The position numbers and the translations under genes are program-made. The notes under the pieces are model-generated. The model made no database searches and was not told where the DNA came from. It was given only the letters and a program-made list of their open reading frames with translations. 64,000 nucleotides of DNA, taken from the NCBI RefSeq assembly GCF_053078305.1, contig NZ_CP166879.1; one strand, 5' to 3'. Position 1 is the first letter of the stretch. Each line of letters begins with the position of its first letter. Below, one piece after another: positions 31,001-44,025 of this stretch.

Positions 31001-34000
31001 TGGTACTGGCACTCTGACTCTGCGTTGTCCCGGCCTCACGGCGGTCGTGCGTTGTCTTACTGCTGCCAGTGGTGAAACCAATACCACCGGTACCCATCAG
31101 ACCGGATTTCTTCGTTTCCTTAAAGCGCCAGGACGTATCTGTACTGGTGGCAGCAAGAACATCAACATGGTTACCCGCCGCCAGTGACACATCCCGGTCA
31201 GCCACCACATCCGAACCCTCTACCGTCAGGTTATTACCGGCGTTAACGGTCACGCGGTTTCCCGACAACAGGGAGCCCTTCTCACGGGTGACGCTGTCTT
31301 CCGTGATGGTCCGGGTGGTCTGATGGCTGAGGAGACGGTTACGGGTTTCCCCTGATTCACTGTAGTGATAATCACTTTCCGTGGCAGTACCCAGTACGAT
31401 GTCATGACCGGCATTCACACGGATATCGCCCTTTGCCGTTACAGCGGTCGCAACTGAGGTGATATCCCGTCCGGCAGTAACCGTGATGTCACCGCCACTG
31501 GTCATGTCTGTTCCCTGCTGCCGGACCGAATCATGAACCGTCTTCATGCTGAAAGTGCTGTCGTGGTCACCTGTGCCTGTGGACTCCGCAGCCATGTTCA
31601 CATCCCGTCCGGCGCGGATATCCATACTGTTTTCAGCCATAATACCGGCAGCCTGGCTGTTCACATCACGACCGGCGGAAAGCATCAGACTGTTCCCGGC
31701 AGTGACCGTGGGGGCCACGGCATGAGTTTCATACCACCCGGACCCGCCATAGCGACGACGTTCTCCGGCCTGTATCGCGTTCATGTTCAGGTCATTACCG
31801 GCGGACAGTAACACGCTGTCACCGGCAGAAACGGCGGCACCGGTGATACTGATATCCCCGGCTGCGCCCATAAACAGTGAGTCCGTTGCCCTGACAGCAG
31901 CCAGCGGACCGGTATCCGTTCCGCTGAAATGGTTATATCCGTTGTTCATCGCCCACTGTTCTGTACGGGTGAGGTTACTGATGTTTCCGGTGGCGCTTTC
32001 CAGGGATACGGTTTTACCGCTGATGACTGAGCTGATATTGCCAATATCCCCGATGGCCTTCAGGTTCAGTGCACCACCGGCGTTTATCAGTCCGGCATTC
32101 AGGTTGTCGATACTACCTGTGCTGTCGAGCAGGAGGTCATTCTGTGCGTTGATGCTGCCGCCGCTGTTGGTGATATTGCCACCCGCAAGCTGCACGTTGT
32201 TCCCGCTGATAACGCTGCCATTATGCAGAGTGATATCTTCCGGAGACAGATACAGTTTCGGAACCATGACTGTCTGTCCGTTGATGGTGACGGACTCCCA
32301 CCACAGTATGCTTCTGGTCAGTTGTGCAACCTGCCCGGCGGTCAGCGACACACCAAAGGTCAGTCCGAGCGCTTTCTGTTGTGCTGCCGCGCTGTCCATC
32401 AGGTATTTCATCTGCGCCAGGTCAGAGCCTGTGCCGTTGATATAACGTGAGCCCGTCTGGTTCAGTATGACGTTACTGACATACCGGGTATCAAAAGCCG
32501 CATCCCCCAGAAAGCGGTAATCTTTTTCCGGTTTCAGGCCAAGACGGTCGAGAATGTACGACGAGCCCAGAAATTGTTTTTCATCGGTATATGCCGGGTC
32601 TGTTTCTCGTGGTGCCTGTCCGGGTTGCATCCTGAGCAGGTCATACAGTCCGGCAAACAGACTGCTGTCCACCTTTCCGAGACCATCCAGTTTCGGGTTC
32701 ACCGTAATCAGATACGGACTGTCCGGGTCCGTGGACGGGACAAAATAACCATTGTTACCGGATGGCAGGGGATAGCTGCTTACACTTGCCCCGGACAGCG
32801 ACAGCGCACCCGGGATATCCTTCAGCGTATCCGGCAGCGCGTCATTCCATACAGGGCCGGTTATCCCGGTACCGCTTTCATTCAGCAGGGCTTCACCGCT
32901 CACCCCCTGACTGACCGTCGGTGGTGTCAGGGAGTTCAGCGAAGGCACCGTTATCGTGTTACCTGCACCACCGGCCCGGGGCATGACAGTGGTATTACCG
33001 GTGTCAGTGGCAAAGCTGGCAGACACATCACCGGCAGCGCTGATAACCGCCCGGTACTGACCTGCCGGAGAGGTGCCACTGGCTTCTGTCGCATCCGGTG
33101 AGACCTGGCGATAGACCTTATACCATGGCTCAGTAAACCACGCTTTGGGGAGTGAGCCGGAGGCAAGCCGCCAGACCGTTTCCTTTCCGGTGGTTCCCTC
33201 CTGCCAGCCCTGATTGTTCAGTGTGTCGCCACTCAGGGTCATATTGCCACCGGCGAGAATAAACGATGCCTCATTATCCAGTCGTCCTGCACGGATATGC
33301 ATATCAGCGCCGCCGGATATCCTGGCAGCATGGCCGGAGGCACTGACTGTCACCGTTTCCGTATCGCCCGTACGGATACGGTATTCATCAGGTACCGTGG
33401 CACCCTTACCCCAGTACACGGCCAGATATTCCACACCATCATGCCGGACAACACCCCACCACCGGTTATTTTCCGGAACCGGTGAAATCACCCCGTGACT
33501 GCTTCCAGGAATGACCTCATGGCTGGCCGAAATGGCATCCCAGGAATTCAGAAGATGCGCCGTATTCATGGTGATATCGCCACGTGTGGTTTCAATATTA
33601 CCGGAACGGTTAATGATTTCGCTGTTTGCCGTCCCGCTGCTGTCCTTCTGTACCCACAGACTGTTGCCGGCCAGGATATCACCATGCTGGTTATGCAGAC
33701 GGTCTGTAAACAGCTTCAGGTTATTCCCCGCATAAATCAGCGCACTGTTCAGCAGGGTACCGGCCACATTCATTGTCAGACTGCCTGCCGTGCCGGTAAA
33801 ACCACTGATGGTGATATCACTCCGGCTGTTCAGACTCACATCGCCACCGGCCTGAAGTGAACCCGGTGCGTTAAGGAAAAGACGCTGTGCGCTGAAAACA
33901 CTGTTGCCTTTACCGGCAGTCAGCGTTCCATTGTTGGTGAATGCCTCTCCGGCACTGAGCATTATGGCATCACCCTGCATCACACCGCCGTTGGTGATGG

Positions 34001-37000
34001 CGTTCTGCGACGTGACGGAAAGGGTTTTCCCTGCGGCCAGGGTACCGTAATTCGTGAGGGCAGCAATCAGTTTCAGTGTGACATCACCGGTGGCCACCAC
34101 CTGGCCCTGACCACTGAAGTCCTGAGCGTCAAGCAGCAGGTTGCCTGCACTGTACAGCCGCCCTGTACCATTTTGCAGCAGTGAACTGCCCTTGACGCCA
34201 AGCCCGGAGGTTCCCAGCAGGGTACCACTGTTGCTGAATGTGTGGTAATTCACCAGCAGGTCCGCCCCCTGAAGCGTACCGGTATTATTCAGCGTGGTTC
34301 CTTTAACGTCGGCACTGCCGGTGGCAAGTACGCGTCCGCCGTTGACAGTATTCACCACATCCAGCAGCAGGGTGGCAGCCTGTACCAGTCCGCTGCCGGT
34401 GTTCGCCAGCACCTGCGCCGTCAGCGTGAGGTTGCTGCCGGAGAGGATTTTGCCGTCGTTCTGCAGACGGTCTGTGGCGTTCAGGGAAAAACCGCCACCA
34501 CCCTGTATCGTGCCCTGGTTACTCAGGGTCGCAGTACTGACATTCAGTGCATTCCGGCTCATCAGAACACCACCGGAACGGTTGTTCACGCCACCGGAGG
34601 CGGCCAGCGTCAGCGTTTCGCCCTGCAGATGCCCGCCGTTTGTGAGTTGTCCTGCCGTGATGGTGGTGGCATTTCCCTGTAATTGCCCGTCGTTTGTGAC
34701 ACTGTCTGCCTTCAGCGTCAGCACACCTGCACTGAGCAGTTTTCCGTTCGCCTGATTGTTCAGCGTCTGATTCACCGTGAGCGTGAGAGTATCCACACCG
34801 GTGATGTCACCCGCACTGGTCAGTGAGTTCGCCTTCAGGGTCAGATTTTTTGCAATCCATTGTCCGCTGTTGCTTAAATTCAGTGCACTGAGCGCCATTT
34901 CACCGTTCGAGGTGACTTTGCTGCCTGCTGTGCTGACGAGCTCACCCGTCAGACGTGCAGTCAGGCTGTCAGCCGCCTGGATCGCCCCGCTGTTTGCCAG
35001 ACTGTCTGCGGTGATCAGCACCCGTTTGCCCTGCCAGTGTCCGGAACTGGTAATACTGCCTGCGGTGATTGTCAGATCGCCGCTGGTCAGCAGTGAACCG
35101 CCGTTATTCATCAGCGCAGGTTGAGGGGATGCCATATCCATACGGGCGGCAAGCGTCAGCGCGGCTATCCCGGTGAGCGTGCCACTGTTGGTGACACTGT
35201 TCTGACAAATCGTGACATGGTTACCCTGGACAGTGCCGCGGTTATCCAGTGAGTTTCCATCAAGAGAGAGCGTGCCGGCCGAAAGCAGACTGCCCCGGTT
35301 GTCCGTGGTGGCTGCGTTCAGCGTGGTGTCACCCTGGCTCATGATATCGCCGGTACTGGTCAACTGACCGGTTGCCGAAGCAGTAAGGTTACCGGTTGCC
35401 AGCACGGAACCACGGTTCGCCCATCTGTCCGCCTGCACGGTGAGATTCTGTCCCTGCGTGGTCCCTGCGGTATTCAGTGTTTTACCCCGGAGGGAGAGGT
35501 CGCCCGCCGTCAGCCAGCGTCCGTTACGGCCCTGTGAGAGGGTGTCGCCTGCAAGCGCCAGTGCACCGGCGCCCTGCAACAGACCATCACCATCCAGCGT
35601 GGTCGCCCTGACGTTCAGCGTGTCAGCGATGATTTTTCCCGGATTGCTGAGGGAGGCAGTGTTTAACGTTAAACCATTATCACCGGTGATAAGCCCGCTG
35701 TTGCGGATGTCCGGTATATCCAGCGTCAGGTCTGCAGCACTGTACAGCGTGCCGTTCTGCTGATTATCAAGCCGCTGTGTGTTAACGGTGAGTGAGGCCT
35801 TCCCCTGCAACAGACCGCTGTTGGTCAGGGTCTGTGACTGTGTATTCAGGGCGGAAGCAACAAGTACGCCGCTGCTGGTCAGTTCCGGCGCACTGAGGCT
35901 GAGCGACGGGGCGCTGCTTTTCCCGCTGTGGGTGAGCTTTTCACTGGCGTTCAGGGTGAGGATGTCTCTGGCAGCCTGTGTTCCGTCAAGCTGTGCGTTC
36001 TGCACATCCACGCTGACACTGTTGCCCTGCGTCTGCGCAGTGGTCGTGGTCTTCAGACTGTTGCCTTTTACAGACACCGTGCCACCCGCACTGGTTTCAC
36101 CCGCCAGCGTGGAAGACGCGCTGTTCAGCATGAGGTTACCGTCACTGTGCGTGACTGATTTTTCTGTGGTGGTCAGTGTGTCTGCAGAAGCCACAAGTTC
36201 CTTTGCCCCGGAGAGGGTACCGCTGTTGTTTATCTGCGTGGCACTGAGCGTCAGCACGTCATCGCTGACGAGTCTGCCGCGGTTTTCAAGTGTACCGCTG
36301 ACGGTAACGCGGGCACTGTCTTTTGCACCGGCATCACCGGACAGTGTGGCATTGCGGGCGCTGATATCGAGTGTGCTGCCACTTTTAATACTGCCGGTGC
36401 TGGTCAGGTCAGTGGCGGTGACTTTCAGGCCATTCCCCTGGACGGTACCGGTATTACTGAATGTCCCGGTTTTCACCGTGGCATCGCGCCCGGCAACCAG
36501 TGTCCCACCGTTGTTCAGGCTGCCGGAGCTGACGGTGAGTGTTTTCCCGGCAACGCTGCGGCCTTTCAGTGTGGTATCCCCCGTGGTGGTAAGGGTGACA
36601 TTTTCAGCTGCATTCACGGCCCCGGAAGTCTGGTTCAGGTGCTGTGCACTGAGCATGGCGTTCTGTCCGGCAGTCAGTTCACCACCGTTCTGTACAATCT
36701 GCCCGGATGAAGACAGCACCAGATTTTTATCCGTCACCAGACGGGACTGATTCAGTGTCAGTCCCGTTGTCCCGGTAACGCTGAGATTTCCTCCGGCTTT
36801 GTTATCCCCTGAAAGTGAGACATCCGTTCCGGTTACGGTGGTACTGCCGCCGGCAAGGCTGTTCTTCAGGACCAGTTTTCCGGAACTGCTCAGTATGATA
36901 TCGCCCTCCCGGGCATAAAGGTTACCAAGATTAACCCCGACACCATTTTCAGTGGAGGTCAGATGAATACGCCTGGCGTACATTCCACCGAGCGCGCCAG

Positions 37001-37733
37001 TATCAACGGCAACTTTCGGCACATCACCTTCGCCCTTCAGGGCACTGACACGACCATCTGCAGTTACACGGTTAGCACCTGCAGTGACAGTTAAATCCTT
37101 CGCATGAAGCGCGGCATTCACTTCCGTTGCACGGGCAATAATGGATACGGCATCGCTCCGGGTGCCGTCCAGGCCCGCGCCATTGATGGTGATACTGCCT
37201 TCAGTCACCTCCAGCGCCTGCAGGCTGCCGTCGGCATTCATCACAGGTCTGCCCGTGGTGAGCGTCGCGTGCGGCGTGTTGATAAAGCCACAGCCGTCAC
37301 AGGTGATACCATACGGGTTGGCAACCATCACATTCGCCGCTTTGCCGGCCACTTCCGTATAGCCCTGCAGCAGTGAACGCTTACCGCCGGTCACTTCGTT
37401 GATGATACCCTTCGCTTCCCCGCCCGCTTTCAGGTTCGGGTTATTCTGTATCAGTCCACCAAGCTGCGTCGGATTAAGCTTACCGGTGGCATTATTGAGA
37501 ATCAGCCCTTCCTTCCCGACGTTGTAATCCGTAAACCGGTTATGCGAAATCCCGGCCCCGTCCGGCGTGGCAATGTTCACGACCGGCACACCATTTGCCG
37601 CTTTATCCATTCCGGCCCCGTTTTGTGGGGTGATGACGGCCCCCACAGCCGGTAACAACGGCTGCCCGGCGATAATTGTACTGATAAGGTAACTCAGCAG
37701 GCGGTAAGTGAAGCGAACAGGAGGCTGATGCAT
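28023..37733 (-). CDS. cdiA: CdiA contact-dependent inhibition exoprotein (TPS family)
   Basis: 3236 aa; extended signal [48 protein letters not shown]; TPS domain [26 protein letters not shown]; long filamentous-haemagglutinin-type repeats; VENN motif at 28956..28967 followed by a 310-aa C-terminal toxin region. Confidence 0.92.
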
Positions 37734-37745
37734 GGTAATAATCCC

Positions 37746-39513
37746 TTAAAACGCGACGGCAACGCGCCAGTAAACCGTGAGATGGTCAGGGGCAAGCCAG
37801 TCCGGGTAAACAAGAGGCAGTCCGGCGGTGAACGAACCGGAAACATGACCACTGGTGGTGCTGAGCCCGGCAGCAGCACCCCACAGCGTGCCGGACGAGT
37901 ACGGGTCATCGCTGTCAGAGTGCAGCCAGCCGCCGTCCAGTGCAGTCACTGCACGGACTGTCCCCACATATGGCAGGGAGAACAGAGACCAGGACAGCTC
38001 ATTTCGCAGATAACCGCCGTTATTACCGGAGATATACTGCTCCTTAAAGCCACGCACTGAACTCTCACCCCCGAGGCTCAGTTGTTCCACACCATGAAGA
38101 CGGTCCGGTGACCACTGGGCATAAGCGCTGGTCAGCCACCACACCCTGTCCGTGACGGGGCGCTGAAAACTGGCGCTTAATGACCATTTCCGGAACTGAT
38201 TTACGGGCAGGTCTCCCCTTTTCCCGTGGTCGCTTTCTGCGCCGAACCAGGGCATCCCCCGTGTGAATACCGGATTCAGTGTTCCGACACCCCCCAGAAA
38301 CTTGTGTGTGTGATTCAGCCCGACAGAAAATGAAGTGAGTTTACGGCTGCTGCCCTGAAGCAGAACATCATCCAGATAATTGTGAATAATGCGGTGCTGC
38401 AGACCTCCGGTCAGTGCTGTCTTCATGTCCCCGTTACGGAACAGGACATGCGACAGTCCCAGCCGGTGAGTCTGCAGGTCTCCCGTGGAACGCCACCGCC
38501 AGCCCCGGTTATCAATGGTGCTGAGGTAGTCACTCCATGAATACGTGTAATCCACCAGGGTATAGCCATACGGCAGACTGACACCGGCGGCAAAATTCCT
38601 CGCATCATGTGACACCGAAAAGTCACTGCTCCGTCCTCCGCTGACAAACCAGTTGTCAGCCAGCCCCAGAGGATTATTAAAGGAAAGGACTCCATTTAAC
38701 TGCCCCGTACCGGTATTCTTCTGTCCGCTGTTGTCGATGCCCACGCTCCCTGTGACAGGCCATTCCGGCGATGCCGTCAGTGTCACCACCGACCATCCCT
38801 CACGGTCACCGGGCGATATTTCAATCTGTACCGGCTCCGTACGCAGACGGTTAATCTGCTCCATCCCCTGCTCAATATCCCGCAGGTTCAGAACCTTCCC
38901 CTCCATTCCCGGGAAAACCATCTTCAGGGTGCGGGCAGGAAGGTCAGCGCCTTCCGCCCGGATTTGCTGCAGCCTGCCTTCCATGACCGTTATGTGCAGT
39001 ACGCCCCCTGAAAGGTCCTGCTCTGTCAGAAAGGCCCGGCTGGTGATATATCCCCGGCGTATATAGCCGTCCGTCACGGCATCCGTGACCGCGGTCAGCC
39101 CCGTGATATTCAGACACTGATTCACCCACGGTGCCACCAGTCTGTCGGTTTCTGCAGACGTCAGTCGGGTGGCCCCACTGACAACAATGCGTGACACCGT
39201 AAAGCAGGGACCGTCAGTACCGGCAGACATTTTCCGGAGACGGTATGACAGTCAGCGGCGCACTGCGCTCCAGCGCATCACGCTGACGCTGGTTTTCATC
39301 CAGCAACTGCTGCTGTTGCTGCTGAATGGCACTGCGGTCACCCGGAGACAGCATGGCAGCCGGAGACGAAAACGAAAGAATGCAAAGGCAGGAGAGGAGG
39401 GGAAAATAGCGTGCCACCGGAGAGAAAGTGCGGAGCTTAAATGCGCACTGGCCGGAAACCATACCAGGCAACAACGTTCTGTTCGCCAGTAAGTTATCCT
39501 GCCGGTGCTGCAT
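37746..39513 (-). pseudogene. cdiB: cdiB (TpsB outer-membrane transporter) apparently split by a frameshift
   Basis: N-terminal 99-aa ORF (39214..39513, …PGDRSAIQQQQQQLLDENQRQRDALERSAPLTVIPSPE…) and 494-aa ORF (37746..39230, MSAGTDGPCFTVSRIVVSGATRL…) are in different frames and overlap at 39214..39230 around an A4 run. Confidence 0.7.
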
Positions 39514-39874
39514 ATTCTCCTCGTGGGGTATCCAGTGTAAATTAACGTAAGTGGAATGTCAGTGCTGAAATTTACACCCGATAAAAAACATACAGAAACA
39601 ATCCTGTTATGTAAAATCTGGAAAAATGTCAGAAATGTGATCGAAGTTGTGTTTTACGGAGGGGGAAAAGGAAAAAAGACATCCTTTGATGGTAAAAAAG
39701 ATGTTTCCTGCAGAGTAACAATCAGGAATGCAACACAAGTTCCAGTTCAGGTGTTGTGGATTTGAGTAAAAAAACAGTCATAACTCTCCTGAGAACCTGA
39801 AACTCCTCAGTGTGTTCTTATAAATGGAAAATGCGCAATAACGATGATTCCAGTCACTACTGATAACGCGTTTT

Positions 39875-39914
39875 GCGTATGCCGAACTGTGATCGATTCA
39901 GGTGTCATTTTGCA
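39875..39914 (+). repeat. Right copy of the imperfect direct repeat flanking the cdi module
   Basis: gcgtatgccgaactgtgatcgattcaggtgtcattttgca; see 26500..26543. Confidence 0.6.
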
Positions 39915-40100
39915 CGTTTCTCATCTTTGATGTAACCCACCATCCCTGACCTAGCATCGCAATAAAATTAAGTCTGAATAAAAATTACGACAATTTCACA
40001 GTTTCTGTCGATTGTGGCATTATCAGCAGCATCCACCTCCGGGGTTTACACCGGAGCCTGAACAGGTAAACTACCTGTTCATCCTGTTTATTATCCCTGA

Positions 40101-41000
40101 ATGCTTATGTCGCAGTTCGATTTTACCAGTCTGGATCCCTTTGCCCGAGCCGTTTCTCCTTTTGAGGAAATGGCGGCTTATGAGGCGTTATGGTCAGAAA
40201 AAGGCGCGACATTCAAAACTATTGCGGATAAATTTCGTGCAGCACCAACCGGCTCGCTTCCTTCTGACTTTGTCTCAGACAGCATTATTGCTGCTTTTAA
40301 AAACCGGCTGAAAGAAATTATCGCGCGTTACGATATTGACGATCTGGGGATACGTGTCCATGGGGCCGGAGAATATCCAGAAAAACTGCGGGATGCGCGG
40401 AACCCCATAGAACTTCTTTACTATCAGGGGTGGTGGGACCTGATTAACACTCGCTCGGTAGCTGTTGTTGGTTCCCGTAGAGTCTCTGAAGAAGGAGCAA
40501 AACGAACCCGCAAAGTCGTCAAATTTCTGGTTGAGGATGGTTTTACCATCGTTTCAGGACTGGCTGAAGGCGTGGATACCAACGCGCATCAGACGGCACT
40601 GGCTCTGGGTGGTAAAACGATTGCAGTTATCGGGACACCACTTTCACATCATTATCCCAGACAAAACAGTAATCTGCAGAAAAACATTCGCGACAACCAC
40701 CTGCTTATCAGTCAGGTTCCGTTTCATCGATACCTGGAGCAGGACTATCGGAGCAACCGAATATTTTTTCCGGAGCGAAATGTCACGATGTCTGCGCTGA
40801 CAGAAGCAACGATTATTATTGAAGCATCAGAAACATCAGGTACTCTGACTCAGGCACGTGCGGCACTTGCCCAGGGCCGAAAATTGTTTATTCTGGAATC
40901 CTGCTTTCGTAACCCATCAATTACATGGCCTGCCCGTTTTGAAGCGCAAGGGGCCATTCGGGTCAGGAATTACGAAGACATCAGGAGGCATCTCCGTTGA
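40101..41000 (+). CDS. DprA/Smf-like (DNA-processing protein A fold) protein
   Basis: 299 aa; VAVVGSRRVSEEGAKRTRKVVKFLVEDGFTIVSGLAEGVDTNAHQTALALGGKTIAVIGTPLSHHYPRQNSNL matches the DprA Rossmann-like core; stop overlaps the next gene's start (ATGA). Confidence 0.8.
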   Translation: MLMSQFDFTSLDPFARAVSPFEEMAAYEALWSEKGATFKTIADKFRAAPTGSLPSDFVSDSIIAAFKNRLKEIIARYDIDDLGIRVHGAGEYPEKLRDARNPIELLYYQGWWDLINTRSVAVVGSRRVSEEGAKRTRKVVKFLVEDGFTIVSGLAEGVDTNAHQTALALGGKTIAVIGTPLSHHYPRQNSNLQKNIRDNHLLISQVPFHRYLEQDYRSNRIFFPERNVTMSALTEATIIIEASETSGTLTQARAALAQGRKLFILESCFRNPSITWPARFEAQGAIRVRNYEDIRRHLR

Positions 41001-41623
41001 CACTTCGTCTGACTCTGATTGATGAACTGATACGTAAACAACATCATTATCTGGAGGATGGTGATCTGTGTTATTGCTTTGGCGAATACACAGCCCGACA
41101 AGGCGCTGCTTACAGCGAAACTAACCAGTTAATCATCAATCTTAAAAAGGGGTATGAACGTCGGGCATTCCCTGATTACCACTATAAAAAGGTTGCTATT
41201 GAGTATGTTGCTCAGATGCTCATATCAAATATCGGTAATCTTGAGGAATACACATTTGTTCCCGTACCACCATCCAAATGCCGTACAGATGCCGCTTACG
41301 ATGACCGTATGACAGAAATTCTGCGAATTGCGCAAACCTACGAACCCTGGCTGGATTACCGGGAACTGGTTGTGCAAAACGTATCAACAATTGCCTCTCA
41401 TACCGCAACAAACCGGCCCTCACCAGAAGCGATTATGGCAAACTACCAACTGGATGAACAATTACTGGAGGGATGCAGGCCCTGGATTGTTATTTTTGAT
41501 GACGTTCTTACTGCCGGTAGCCATTTTAAAGCGATGAAAAGCCTGATACTACAACATATTCCTGAAGCCTGTATACTGGGACTCTTTGTTGCCCGAACAA
41601 CCCGGGGAGCTCAAATTATTTAA
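40997..41623 (+). CDS. Phosphoribosyltransferase (PRTase)-like protein
   Basis: 208 aa; C-terminal WIVIFDDVLTAGSHF fits the type I PRTase PRPP-binding motif; translationally coupled to the DprA-like gene. Confidence 0.55.
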   Translation: MTLRLTLIDELIRKQHHYLEDGDLCYCFGEYTARQGAAYSETNQLIINLKKGYERRAFPDYHYKKVAIEYVAQMLISNIGNLEEYTFVPVPPSKCRTDAAYDDRMTEILRIAQTYEPWLDYRELVVQNVSTIASHTATNRPSPEAIMANYQLDEQLLEGCRPWIVIFDDVLTAGSHFKAMKSLILQHIPEACILGLFVARTTRGAQII

Positions 41624-41640
41624 AAAGGGTAAAGTACTCC

Positions 41641-44025
41641 TTAGAATGAAAGCCCTTCACCATCAGCCACAATCCTGTACCCCATCGCCTTATAACCCCG
41701 CTGGCGTTTATCCCACATTCTGAGCAGCACTGGATACGCGGTATCCACAAAATCAATGATCCTGACATCGCTTTTACCGGTATGCTCTCTGTGTAGACGT
41801 CCCGCATACTGCTGTAACGTCCCTTTCCATGACACAGGCATGGCAAGAATCAGCGTATCCAGCGGAGGGTGGTCAAATCCCTCACCAATAAGTCTGCCTG
41901 TTGACAACAAAATACGGGGAGAATCAGGAGGAAGAGCATTCAGCCCGGAAATCATCATAGTACGCTTTTTTTTCGATAATCGACTATGGAGAACAAAAGG
42001 CGACAATTTCAGTGTGTTCATCACTGAGGCTATATCATCCAGATGATCTGTACGTTCAGTCAGTACCAGAACTTTACGCCCCTGCCCAAAAGCTTTCATG
42101 GCTTCTTCAGCTATCGCCACCGTTCTGTCATGATCCAGAGCAATTTCTCTGAAAATATCCTGGATTCTCGCATCCGATGGTAAATGACCAGATGTAAAAC
42201 GGGAACGGGTCAGCACCTCCAGATTATGTGGGCTTTCCTTCGGGCGGGACGCTGTATGGCGAATGGCACCACAGTACATAAAAATAATGGGGTGCAGACC
42301 ATCCCGTCGGATTGGTGTTGCCGTCAGGCCAAGCAGATATCTGGCATTCGTTTCCTTCAGAATCGCAGAAAATGAAACCGCGCCAATATGATGGCACTCA
42401 TCCACAATGATTTGCCCATAATTCCTGACCAGAGGTTCAACTTCTCCGTGTCTGGATATGGACTGCACCACCGCAATATCAATATTGCCACAGGGTTTAT
42501 GTTTCCCTCCCCCGATAATACCAATACTGTCACCGGCCTGCAGAAACACCGCGAGACGCTCCTGCCACTGCTTCAGCAATTCAGTCCGGTGTACCAGTAT
42601 CAGTGTATTCACTTTCCGTCTGGCAATCACTGCCGCTGCGGTAACTGTCTTACCAAAAGCCGTTGGCGCACAAAGCACACCAGTGTCATAACGGAGTAAT
42701 GCCGAAACGGCCTCTTCCTGCTCCGCTCTGAGGTTTCCCATAAAAACGGCATTACATTCCGTCCCGGCAAATCGTTTATCGATTAATTCTGCAGCAATAT
42801 TGTTGTCCCTAAGGAAAGATAATACGCTGTCCAGACATCCCCGGGGCAACGCAATGTGTTGCGGGTAATTCTCCGCACAACCTATAACACGGGGCTTATT
42901 CCAGACTGACATACGCATTGCCTGAGCCTTATAAAACTCAGGGTTCGGAAATGCTGCCAGCCGAATAAGTCGGTTAATCAGCACCTGAGGTAATTGCGCT
43001 TTTTCGAAATAGATCTGATTTGCCAGCGTGATTTTCAGCGGTTCAGCAACAGCAAGATTCAGTCTGTTTCCTGATGATTTTTTCCCTTCCCATGGCGTAC
43101 CCAGGTCTTCTTCGTTGATAAAGTTCACATCCAGAGGATGGATACTTCCTGTAGCCCGTAATATCGTCGGTTCAATATCCTGCACATTCATCGGGAGCAC
43201 CGACGCAAGAAAAGCCCACTGATCAGGATGAGGCTGGAAATTCATATCAACAAAAACACTTCCCCCCGATGCACGCGGTCTTTTTTGCAGAGGTAACGCG
43301 ATAAGATTACCAAATCCTCCTTTTGGCATCGTATCCTGATTAGGAAATAATCGGTCATAAGAACTCAATTGCAGCTGTCGGGTCCGGCTGCACGTATAGC
43401 TAATAACAGCAGTCCCCAGACGGCGAGCTTCGCGGGCCGAAACTCGTGAAGCAAAAAATATCCAGACATGCGCTCCCTGACGTGAGCGGGATATTTCCAG
43501 CACAGCGGGTACACCCAGCTCATCACAGGCTCGCATGAACGCGGATGCATCCTTCTGCCATTCAGCTTCATCAAAATCAACAGCCAGAAAATAACAGGAA
43601 TCATCTTCCAGCAACGGATATAACCCGGCAGTATGCGTGCCTGCCAGATGCTGGTAGATGACAAGATCAGATACAGGAATCAACTGACGGTGAACGCAGT
43701 CCCCACATTTTATCCGGGGCTTACCGCATATTCCCAACTGCCATTCGTTAGCGCAGGCCGGCGAGTACCCTGATTTGCCGCTGGTTTTACTTTCCCATCT
43801 AAGTGCCCATACATCATCACGCCCACGAAACAACCGACGAAATAATGCAACCTTCTCGTCGGTGGATAATACAGAAACGCGCTGCACAGGAGTCTGCGGT
43901 TTACGTCTCCATTCAATCCCATGAGCTTCAAGTAATGAGACCAGACGGGCATTTTCTGCCCTCAATGCAGCTAATTCATCGCTGTCAGATTTATGAACCA
44001 TATTCGTTACCTGTATCCGATCCAC
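41641..44025 (-). CDS. Fusion protein: AEP primase-polymerase-like N-terminal domain plus SF2 helicase C-terminal domain (yfjK-position)
   Basis: 794 aa; N-terminal AVDFDE and SRSRQGAHVWIFF plus Cys cluster GICGKPRIKCGDCVH; helicase motifs CAPTAFGKT, VDECHH, TATP, QQYAGRLHR. Confidence 0.7.
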   Translation of the reverse strand: MDRIQVTNMVHKSDSDELAALRAENARLVSLLEAHGIEWRRKPQTPVQRVSVLSTDEKVALFRRLFRGRDDVWALRWESKTSGKSGYSPACANEWQLGICGKPRIKCGDCVHRQLIPVSDLVIYQHLAGTHTAGLYPLLEDDSCYFLAVDFDEAEWQKDASAFMRACDELGVPAVLEISRSRQGAHVWIFFASRVSAREARRLGTAVISYTCSRTRQLQLSSYDRLFPNQDTMPKGGFGNLIALPLQKRPRASGGSVFVDMNFQPHPDQWAFLASVLPMNVQDIEPTILRATGSIHPLDVNFINEEDLGTPWEGKKSSGNRLNLAVAEPLKITLANQIYFEKAQLPQVLINRLIRLAAFPNPEFYKAQAMRMSVWNKPRVIGCAENYPQHIALPRGCLDSVLSFLRDNNIAAELIDKRFAGTECNAVFMGNLRAEQEEAVSALLRYDTGVLCAPTAFGKTVTAAAVIARRKVNTLILVHRTELLKQWQERLAVFLQAGDSIGIIGGGKHKPCGNIDIAVVQSISRHGEVEPLVRNYGQIIVDECHHIGAVSFSAILKETNARYLLGLTATPIRRDGLHPIIFMYCGAIRHTASRPKESPHNLEVLTRSRFTSGHLPSDARIQDIFREIALDHDRTVAIAEEAMKAFGQGRKVLVLTERTDHLDDIASVMNTLKLSPFVLHSRLSKKKRTMMISGLNALPPDSPRILLSTGRLIGEGFDHPPLDTLILAMPVSWKGTLQQYAGRLHREHTGKSDVRIIDFVDTAYPVLLRMWDKRQRGYKAMGYRIVADGEGLSF

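Follow-up and report, generated by a model that had tools for sequence, protein, structure and literature searches.

The 64,000-nucleotide window analyzed here (contig NZ_CP166879.1 of RefSeq assembly GCF_053078305.1) is Escherichia coli DNA. At positions 40,101 to 41,623 it holds two genes that a preliminary description, made from the sequence alone, had read as a candidate ShosTA-type toxin-antitoxin pair, consisting of a DprA-like protein (ShosA, the antitoxin) and a phosphoribosyltransferase (PRTase)-like protein (ShosT, the toxin). The two open reading frames (ORFs), ORF1 at 40101-41000 (299 aa) and ORF2 at 40997-41623 (208 aa), lie on the plus strand and overlap by 4 nt.

Organization of the Gene Pair

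The pair and its associated elements are as follows:
40107..41000, plus strand: shosA-like gene, putative DprA-like antitoxin of 297 aa (299 aa from the ATG at 40101)
40997..41623, plus strand: shosT-like gene, putative stand-alone PRTase-fold toxin of 208 aa, TTG start
40983..40988, plus strand: Shine-Dalgarno sequence AGGAGG of shosT, read from the sequence, within the shosA 3' end and 8 nt before the TTG
41489..41527, plus strand: predicted phosphoribosyl pyrophosphate (PRPP)-binding loop VIFDDVLTAGSHF, ShosT residues 165-177
39995..40081, plus strand: candidate promoter region of the operon, with two sigma-70-like sites and an inverted repeat, from a consensus scan only

The overlap had been described as an ATGA junction. 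Its length of 4 nt was confirmed, but the sequence reads gTTGA, with the TTG start of shosT at 40997 and the TGA stop of shosA at 40998-41000. This TTG is a secure start because the N-terminus it opens is conserved, RefSeq annotates the same start, TTG toxin starts in similar context are found in 22 of the 78 homologous loci described below, and the Shine-Dalgarno sequence is well placed. The first in-frame ATG of ORF2 encodes M74, and its use would delete conserved N-terminal residues that include D9, H16, D23, C25, and Y31. The position of AGGAGG inside the shosA 3' end implies translational coupling of shosT. For shosA, the second ATG at 40107 is probably the start, since RefSeq uses it and M3 of ORF1 is invariant in the homologue alignment.

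Scanning the upstream region for sigma-70-like consensus sites returned 8 sites, against 3.9 expected. Those retained lie at 39995-40023, with an extended -10 TG, and at 40045-40072. The -10-like hexamer of the second is overlapped by a perfect 10-bp inverted repeat at 40059-40081, TGAACAGGTA-aac-TACCTGTTCA, about 25 nt upstream of the shosA start, which could be an autoregulatory operator or a small hairpin. The palindrome is partly kept in Lelliottia, the closest non-E. coli locus, and absent in Pantoea; a conserved operator was therefore rejected. Participation of a retron or an RNA antitoxin was also rejected, as the interval 39200-41900 contained no near-threshold Rfam match and no meaningful repeats.

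Both Proteins Match the ShosTA Family

Laboratory work on ShosTA concerns one near-identical E. coli P2-prophage system across four papers (Rousset 2022, pFR105 from APEC O1; Millman 2022, SG210 from KTE181; Pu 2025; Yang 2026). In this system, hereafter the long form, a ShosA of 327-349 aa is followed by a ShosT of 424 aa, in which an N-terminal HAD-like pyrophosphatase (residues 1-164) is fused to the PRTase domain (165-424) (PMC11961720). The gene order at our locus, DprA-like protein first, had been regarded as a departure from ShosTA; it is in fact the order of the tested system.

The DprA/Smf core noticed in the first protein was confirmed by Pfam, with PF02481 matching residues 83-288 at 6.5e-57, and the PADLOC ShosA model PDLC03961 matched ORF1 at 4.2e-103. 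The AlphaFold (AF2) model of ORF1, with a predicted local distance difference test (pLDDT) score of 91, consists of a SAM-like helical N-domain (residues ~20-76) and a DprA Rossmann domain (83-298). When this model was compared by Foldseek with the Protein Data Bank (PDB), the top entries were Streptococcus pneumoniae DprA (3uqz, 1.5e-20) and E. coli ShosA (8zva, 2.4e-20, TMq 0.69). Two arginines of long-form ShosA, R139 and R234, are essential for single-stranded DNA (ssDNA) binding and antitoxin activity (PMC12961424). Their counterparts R126 and R226 are invariant in 77 of 77 homologues, while R253 (long-form R261) is Arg or Lys in 73 of 77, and the position of the long-form RecA contact K200 is Lys or Arg in 66 of the 77 short-clade ShosA proteins.

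For the 208-aa ORF2 a Pfam scan found no match even at E ≤ 10, and the profile check against ShosT gave a significant match to PADLOC model PDLC03962 (2.2e-50). Its AF2 model (pLDDT 89) is a type I PRTase fold. By Foldseek the PRPP-bound ShosT structure 8zvc came first (1.5e-5), a second ShosT entry next, and Helicobacter pylori ComF (7p0h) third. The PRPP-binding motif reported for this protein is well founded: its DD..T.G.H core is invariant or nearly so in 78 homologues, with D168 and D169 present in all 78 and T172 and G174 in 77. The long-form counterparts of D168 and D169 in the alignments are D331 and D332 (canonical IDDFCTEG), and the D331A/D332A substitution abolishes long-ShosT toxicity (PMC11961720, PMC12961424).

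Residues K64, P89, P91, S93, and R104 of ShosT are likewise invariant in 78/78 short homologues, and R140, which lies in the flexible loop, is kept in 76/78. Regarding the long-form PRPP contacts K280 and R285 in that loop, mafft and hhalign alignments differ by two positions; the short ShosT thus appears to share a conserved Arg in the flexible PRPP-contact loop, and an exact pairing of R140 with K280 or R285 is not claimed. In the long-form sequence that was compared, residue 204 is Ala, so that the "H204" of Yang et al. was taken as H240.

The ComFC-DprA proteins of natural transformation (H. pylori ComF 7p0h and S. pneumoniae DprA 3uqz) rank first or nearly so among the structural neighbours of both proteins, and they resemble the pair in joining a PRTase-fold protein to a DprA that binds ssDNA and RecA. 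The pair might accordingly be a non-toxic ssDNA-handling accessory derived from ComFC and DprA, with no toxin-antitoxin activity, that aids a mobile element or the recombination or establishment of incoming ssDNA. We regard this as quite improbable. Both proteins stay below the curated thresholds, ORF2 scoring 14.9 bits for ComF/ComFC (TIGR00201, cutoff 233), and ORF1 165.8 for DprA (TIGR00732, cutoff 191.15) and 138.6 for the E. coli-type DprA (PRK10736, cutoff 495). ComF family proteins carry an N-terminal four-Cys zinc finger. The short ShosT family has no counterpart of it, C25 being its single conserved Cys. The strong PADLOC ShosA and ShosT matches also speak against a plain competence accessory, as do the form of the pair, a coupled mobile cassette, and its rare, strain-specific occurrence in E. 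coli. Because it is present in only 39 of the 5426 complete E. coli genomes surveyed below, and with the DprA and ComF thresholds missed, the housekeeping DNA-uptake module that the preliminary description had named as the contrary case does not describe it.

Comparison with the Long Form

The broad PADLOC models PDLC03961 and PDLC03962 match short and long forms about equally, the tested long-form proteins scoring 2.4e-85 (ShosA) and 1.8e-53 (ShosT). The narrow models PDLC02997 and PDLC03012, in contrast, match the long form at ~1e-231 to 1e-294 and the proteins of this study weakly or not at all, with no match of ORF2 to the narrow ShosT model PDLC03012. When the short family was aligned by hhalign to a 22-sequence long-form alignment, the E value was 8e-4 and the probability 24% over 179 columns; against the single long ShosT sequence the probability was 1%. 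Homology to long ShosT is therefore drawn mainly from structure and from the broad PADLOC model, because sequence comparisons are weak.

The hhalign alignment placed short ShosT residues 7-202 colinear with residues 157-363 of the long form. The 208-aa protein is therefore, as judged from this alignment, the PRTase domain of long ShosT alone, without the N-terminal pyrophosphatase domain. No in-frame N-terminal extension compatible with a HAD-like pyrophosphatase domain was found among the 78 loci.

The long ShosTA (E. coli KTE181/APEC O1, P2-prophage hotspot; PDB 8zva, 8zvb-d, 9vzo) and the present pair have in common the order shosA then shosT, carriage on mobile DNA, and a ShosA built of SAM-like and Rossmann domains in which the ssDNA-binding arginines are kept. 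Both toxins are non-canonical PRTases with the Asp-Asp PRPP loop. They differ in the toxin, which here lacks residues 1-164 and the C-terminal ~60 residues of the 424-aa protein, and in ShosA, where identity is 31% over the Rossmann core. The long-form ShosA has a disordered C-terminal tail and contacts RecA through R206; here there is no such tail and the residue is Gln. The genes are 1 nt apart in phage 10W, whereas they overlap here. Compared with the long form, both proteins of the present pair stand nearer to ComF and DprA of the competence machinery.

A Two-Gene Cassette Conserved Across Phyla

A pattern scan that covered 100,044 species genomes gave 80 loci, spread over Proteobacteria, Bacteroidota, Acidobacteriota, Chloroflexota, Dadabacteria, Myxococcota, and further groups. 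At 78 of the 80, a close ShosA homologue (47-83% identity) is located immediately upstream on the same strand. The shosA stop and the shosT start are separated by -47 to +14 nt at these 78 loci, with overlap in 70. Flanking ORFs of the 56 long loci were clustered, and only two families recur (54 and 52 loci), the next one being present at 5. The pair is a self-contained two-gene cassette conserved across phyla, and the pairing of the genes is not due to chance, because both proteins have hundreds of homologues and synteny is kept in 78 of 80 distant genomes.

The toxins measure 206-230 aa, with a median of 216 (78 loci, one truncated copy), and the antitoxin median is ~300 aa. The small size of the PRTase-like protein had been taken as a possible sign of a divergent or uncharacterised variant. 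This was right in that the tested system is the long form, but the short PRTase is the fixed architecture of a large clade. At 50% identity the short-toxin family forms 812 clusters at E ≤ 1e-30 and 1713 at E ≤ 1e-10. In a word-indexed search with clusters at 90% identity, the short form accounted for 406 and the long form for 111. The short pair is also found on temperate phages of Burkholderia, Pseudomonas, and Ralstonia, including P2-like phages, and on plasmids of several genera. In phage Mana it is located between the integrase and the cos site.

The short clade has already been filed as ShosTA, and the system is known, because the ShosTA family list in Table S10 of Millman et al. (2022) includes contigs of three short-form loci. 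These are Thioalkalivibrio ALJ24 scaffold00003.3 (L037), Arsenophonus nasoniae scaffold00166 (L008), and Chromobacterium haemolyticum scaffold00055 (L069). Two further strains of our set, Pedobacter steynii DSM 19110 (L051) and Bradyrhizobium manausense BR3351 (L034), are listed there under other contig names.

The third recurring flank family, at 5 loci, is an RmrA-like RosmerTA antitoxin. The RmrA-like gene (L034, 5847-6941, PADLOC 1e-49, and four related loci) lies about 1-2 kb upstream of the pair, which fits a defence-island setting.

Several loci carry additional genes of similar type. A second ShosT-like gene (379 aa; broad ShosT model 1.3e-51) directly follows the short shosT at 8663-9802 of L010 and at two other loci, and a second, distant DprA-like gene (29-34% identity) lies downstream of the pair in L065, L066, and L067. 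This suggests tandem or composite ShosTA-type modules at some loci. In a metagenomic protein of 566 aa (P0204), a short-ShosT domain (residues 8-216) is followed by a C-terminal ParA/MinD-like ATPase with a KGGVGKTT Walker A motif; this fusion may be real or a gene-calling artefact.

Island Setting and the E. coli Population

The interval 39900-41700 of the window is 100% identical to E. coli strain STEC17-190, where the region is part of an island inserted next to the tRNA-Thr gene thrW, beside proA. The placement of the pair in an island, beside a contact-dependent inhibition locus and a helicase, had been recognized correctly. The neighbours are:
28023-39230, minus strand: CdiB/CdiA contact-dependent inhibition locus directly upstream of the pair, cdiA product 3236 aa
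41641-44025, minus strand: AEP-SF2 helicase gene, 794 aa, Pfam AEP-TOTE PF22548 at 1.4e-97 plus ResIII/DEAD/Helicase_C

The RefSeq annotation of the identical STEC17-190 region includes a small immunity gene following cdiA. The helicase gene is convergent with shosT across a 17-nt gap. Its product, an archaeo-eukaryotic primase (AEP) domain fused to an SF2 helicase, also matches the PADLOC model for a CRISPR-associated PrimPol (8e-141) and may serve island replication or defence. A literature search for "TOTE conflict system" returned no paper. Plasmids of E. coli EC93 (NZ_CP061330, from a rat) and of M11 and EcWJ, both isolated from mice, have the same CdiBA-ShosTA-helicase arrangement.

In a census of 5426 complete E. 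coli genomes, full-length shosA was found in the 39 already mentioned, as 36 chromosomal and 3 plasmid copies, and the 5' part of shosT likewise in 39, again 36 on chromosomes and 3 on plasmids. An uninterrupted match to the pair over 80% or more of the query was obtained in 37 genomes, and two further copies that were inspected are intact. In some 645 further genomes all that is left of the pair is a 3' remnant of shosT, comprising its last 453, 335, or 218 nt. In O157:H7 (F1273; L084, 6001-6453), for instance, the remnant abuts an IS30 fragment, shosA is gone, and the AEP-helicase gene is intact. The intact pair is thus the rare state among E. coli with the island backbone, most of which carry only the 3' remnant. 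No genome among the 5426 has the 5' half of shosT without shosA, which fits a toxin-antitoxin pair without proving one.

These data bear on whether the pair and the convergent AEP (PrimPol)-SF2 helicase form a single three-gene system. Every E. coli copy examined has the pair and the helicase gene side by side, and the latter encodes the AEP domain that Pfam assigns to a "TOTE conflict system." However, among the 80 loci the helicase stands beside the pair only in a 3.2-kb E. coli-like contig labelled Collinsella (L042), with one distant helicase match in L012, and no third family recurs in the flanks. The genes are convergent and not co-transcribed, and the ~645 genomes with a decayed pair keep an intact helicase. 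A three-gene system was rejected on the basis of synteny and of the E. coli genomes that have the helicase but no pair; we give it hardly any probability.

A functional toxin-antitoxin pair could also serve mainly for addiction, keeping the carrier island, prophage, or plasmid stable instead of defending against phages. The pair is indeed always on mobile or variable DNA (thrW island, plasmids, temperate phages), and the lack of E. coli genomes with the shosT 5' part but no shosA is what any toxin-antitoxin pair would give. Nevertheless, the island backbone survived in the ~645 E. coli genomes where the pair decayed, and therefore the pair is not needed for island maintenance. ShosTA came to light as a family enriched in defence islands, its long-form members protect against T7 and lambda, and other defence genes occur in the flanks (RmrA-like at 5 loci, the AEP-helicase of the "conflict system"). 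Addiction as the main function is, in our opinion, unlikely.

Discussion

The ShosTA reading of the pair was upheld by the PADLOC matches of both proteins, their structural neighbours, synteny in 78 of 80 loci, and the entries in Table S10. We consider it likely that the pair is a toxin-antitoxin/abortive-infection module of the ShosTA family, belonging to a short-ShosT clade and forming part of the cargo of an E. coli island inserted at thrW. Family membership, the two folds, the synteny and coupling of the genes, and the conservation of catalytic and DNA-binding residues are shown by the analysis. By analogy with the long form, we infer that the short pair shares toxicity, neutralisation, a trigger, and phage defence.

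The most likely mechanism would be that of the long form minus the pyrophosphatase. ShosT would act as a ComF/ShosT-type PRTase, binding PRPP by way of the Asp-Asp loop and either consuming it or moving the phosphoribosyl group to an acceptor. This use of PRPP would disturb nucleotide metabolism and DNA replication and lead to cell death or arrest. ShosA, presumably a dimeric DprA-like ssDNA-binding protein, would be translated immediately before the toxin from their common mRNA. Following the logic of type IV toxin-antitoxin systems, it would not bind the toxin but would offset the damage by means of ssDNA binding together with recombination or repair that depends on RecA. Phage infection might free the toxin either through shut-off of host transcription or through phage ssDNA or replication intermediates that occupy ShosA. 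As there is no fused pyrophosphatase, the pyrophosphate product would need to be removed by the host pyrophosphatase. It is plausible that the mechanism operates without this domain because in long ShosT mutation of the PRTase abolishes toxicity, whereas mutation of the pyrophosphatase lowers it only marginally (PMC11961720).

Several observations weigh against this assignment. Sequence similarity to characterised ShosT is marginal (hhalign probability 24%), and searches of PDB sequences with ORF2 (phmmer) and with the family profile (hmmsearch) found no ShosT match; sub-threshold matches of these searches (E 0.3-1.5) were to the PRPP loops of ordinary PRTases only. The fused pyrophosphatase domain that is the proposed driver of the long-ShosT reaction is absent from the short protein. 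In ShosA, Gln takes the place of the RecA contact R206 in 76 of the 77 short-clade sequences. The long-form C-terminal tail underlies antitoxin instability and triggering by T7 Gp0.7 (PMC12961424), and the short-clade ShosA model has no such instability tail: residue 299 closes a confident helix (291-298, mean pLDDT of 96 for the last block), and residues 1-14 are the sole disordered stretch. Finally, we found no experiment on the short architecture and no discussion of it in a literature search that lay outside most subscription journals. Because the pyrophosphatase domain, R206, and the C-terminal tail are absent and ShosT similarity is marginal, the details of trigger and neutralisation may differ from those of the long form.

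A different reading of the same facts is that the short clade is an exapted ComFC-DprA pair, with a PRTase-fold toxin that acts differently from long ShosT. Such a toxin might act, for example, on ssDNA or DprA-bound nucleoprotein, or on another acceptor, with no coupled pyrophosphate hydrolysis. We hold this to be doubtful beside the preferred assignment to a ShosTA-family module with the long-form mechanism.

Two other known systems resemble the pair. PsyrTA (RqlHI) also combines a DprA-like antitoxin with a toxin that has a PRTase module, and ORF1 weakly matches the PADLOC PsyrA model (8.4e-27). However, the ShosA match of ORF1 is better by about 75 orders of magnitude, and the PsyrT profile, at 689 positions, is far longer than the 208-aa protein, which does not match it. 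The SLOG (LDcluster4) and PRTase pair of P2/P4 hotspots (Rousset 2022, cluster 98) has a stand-alone ComF-like PRTase of 193 aa adjoining a Rossmann/SLOG protein, and is another short-PRTase pairing. Its PRTase matches the broad ShosT model weakly (1.3e-8) and PsyrT at 1.5e-7. It differs in that the partner is a 185-aa SLOG protein and not a full DprA, and its similarity to the present pair is much lower.

The analysis mostly re-identifies a catalogued defence system, and to that extent little changes. In RefSeq the toxin appears as "hypothetical protein" and the antitoxin as "DprA," names that hide the ShosTA system from readers of the annotation. The only characterised ShosTA is the long, pyrophosphatase-fused form, whereas the short form has more clusters and spans many phyla, phages, and plasmids. 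It thus bears on whether a PRTase domain is enough by itself for toxicity and defence, and on how far across the family the proposed triggers reach, namely the unstable antitoxin tail and ssDNA-sensitive RecA binding. If the short clade were indeed an exapted ComFC-DprA pair, the long-form model of coupled PRTase and pyrophosphatase activities would not describe most of the family.

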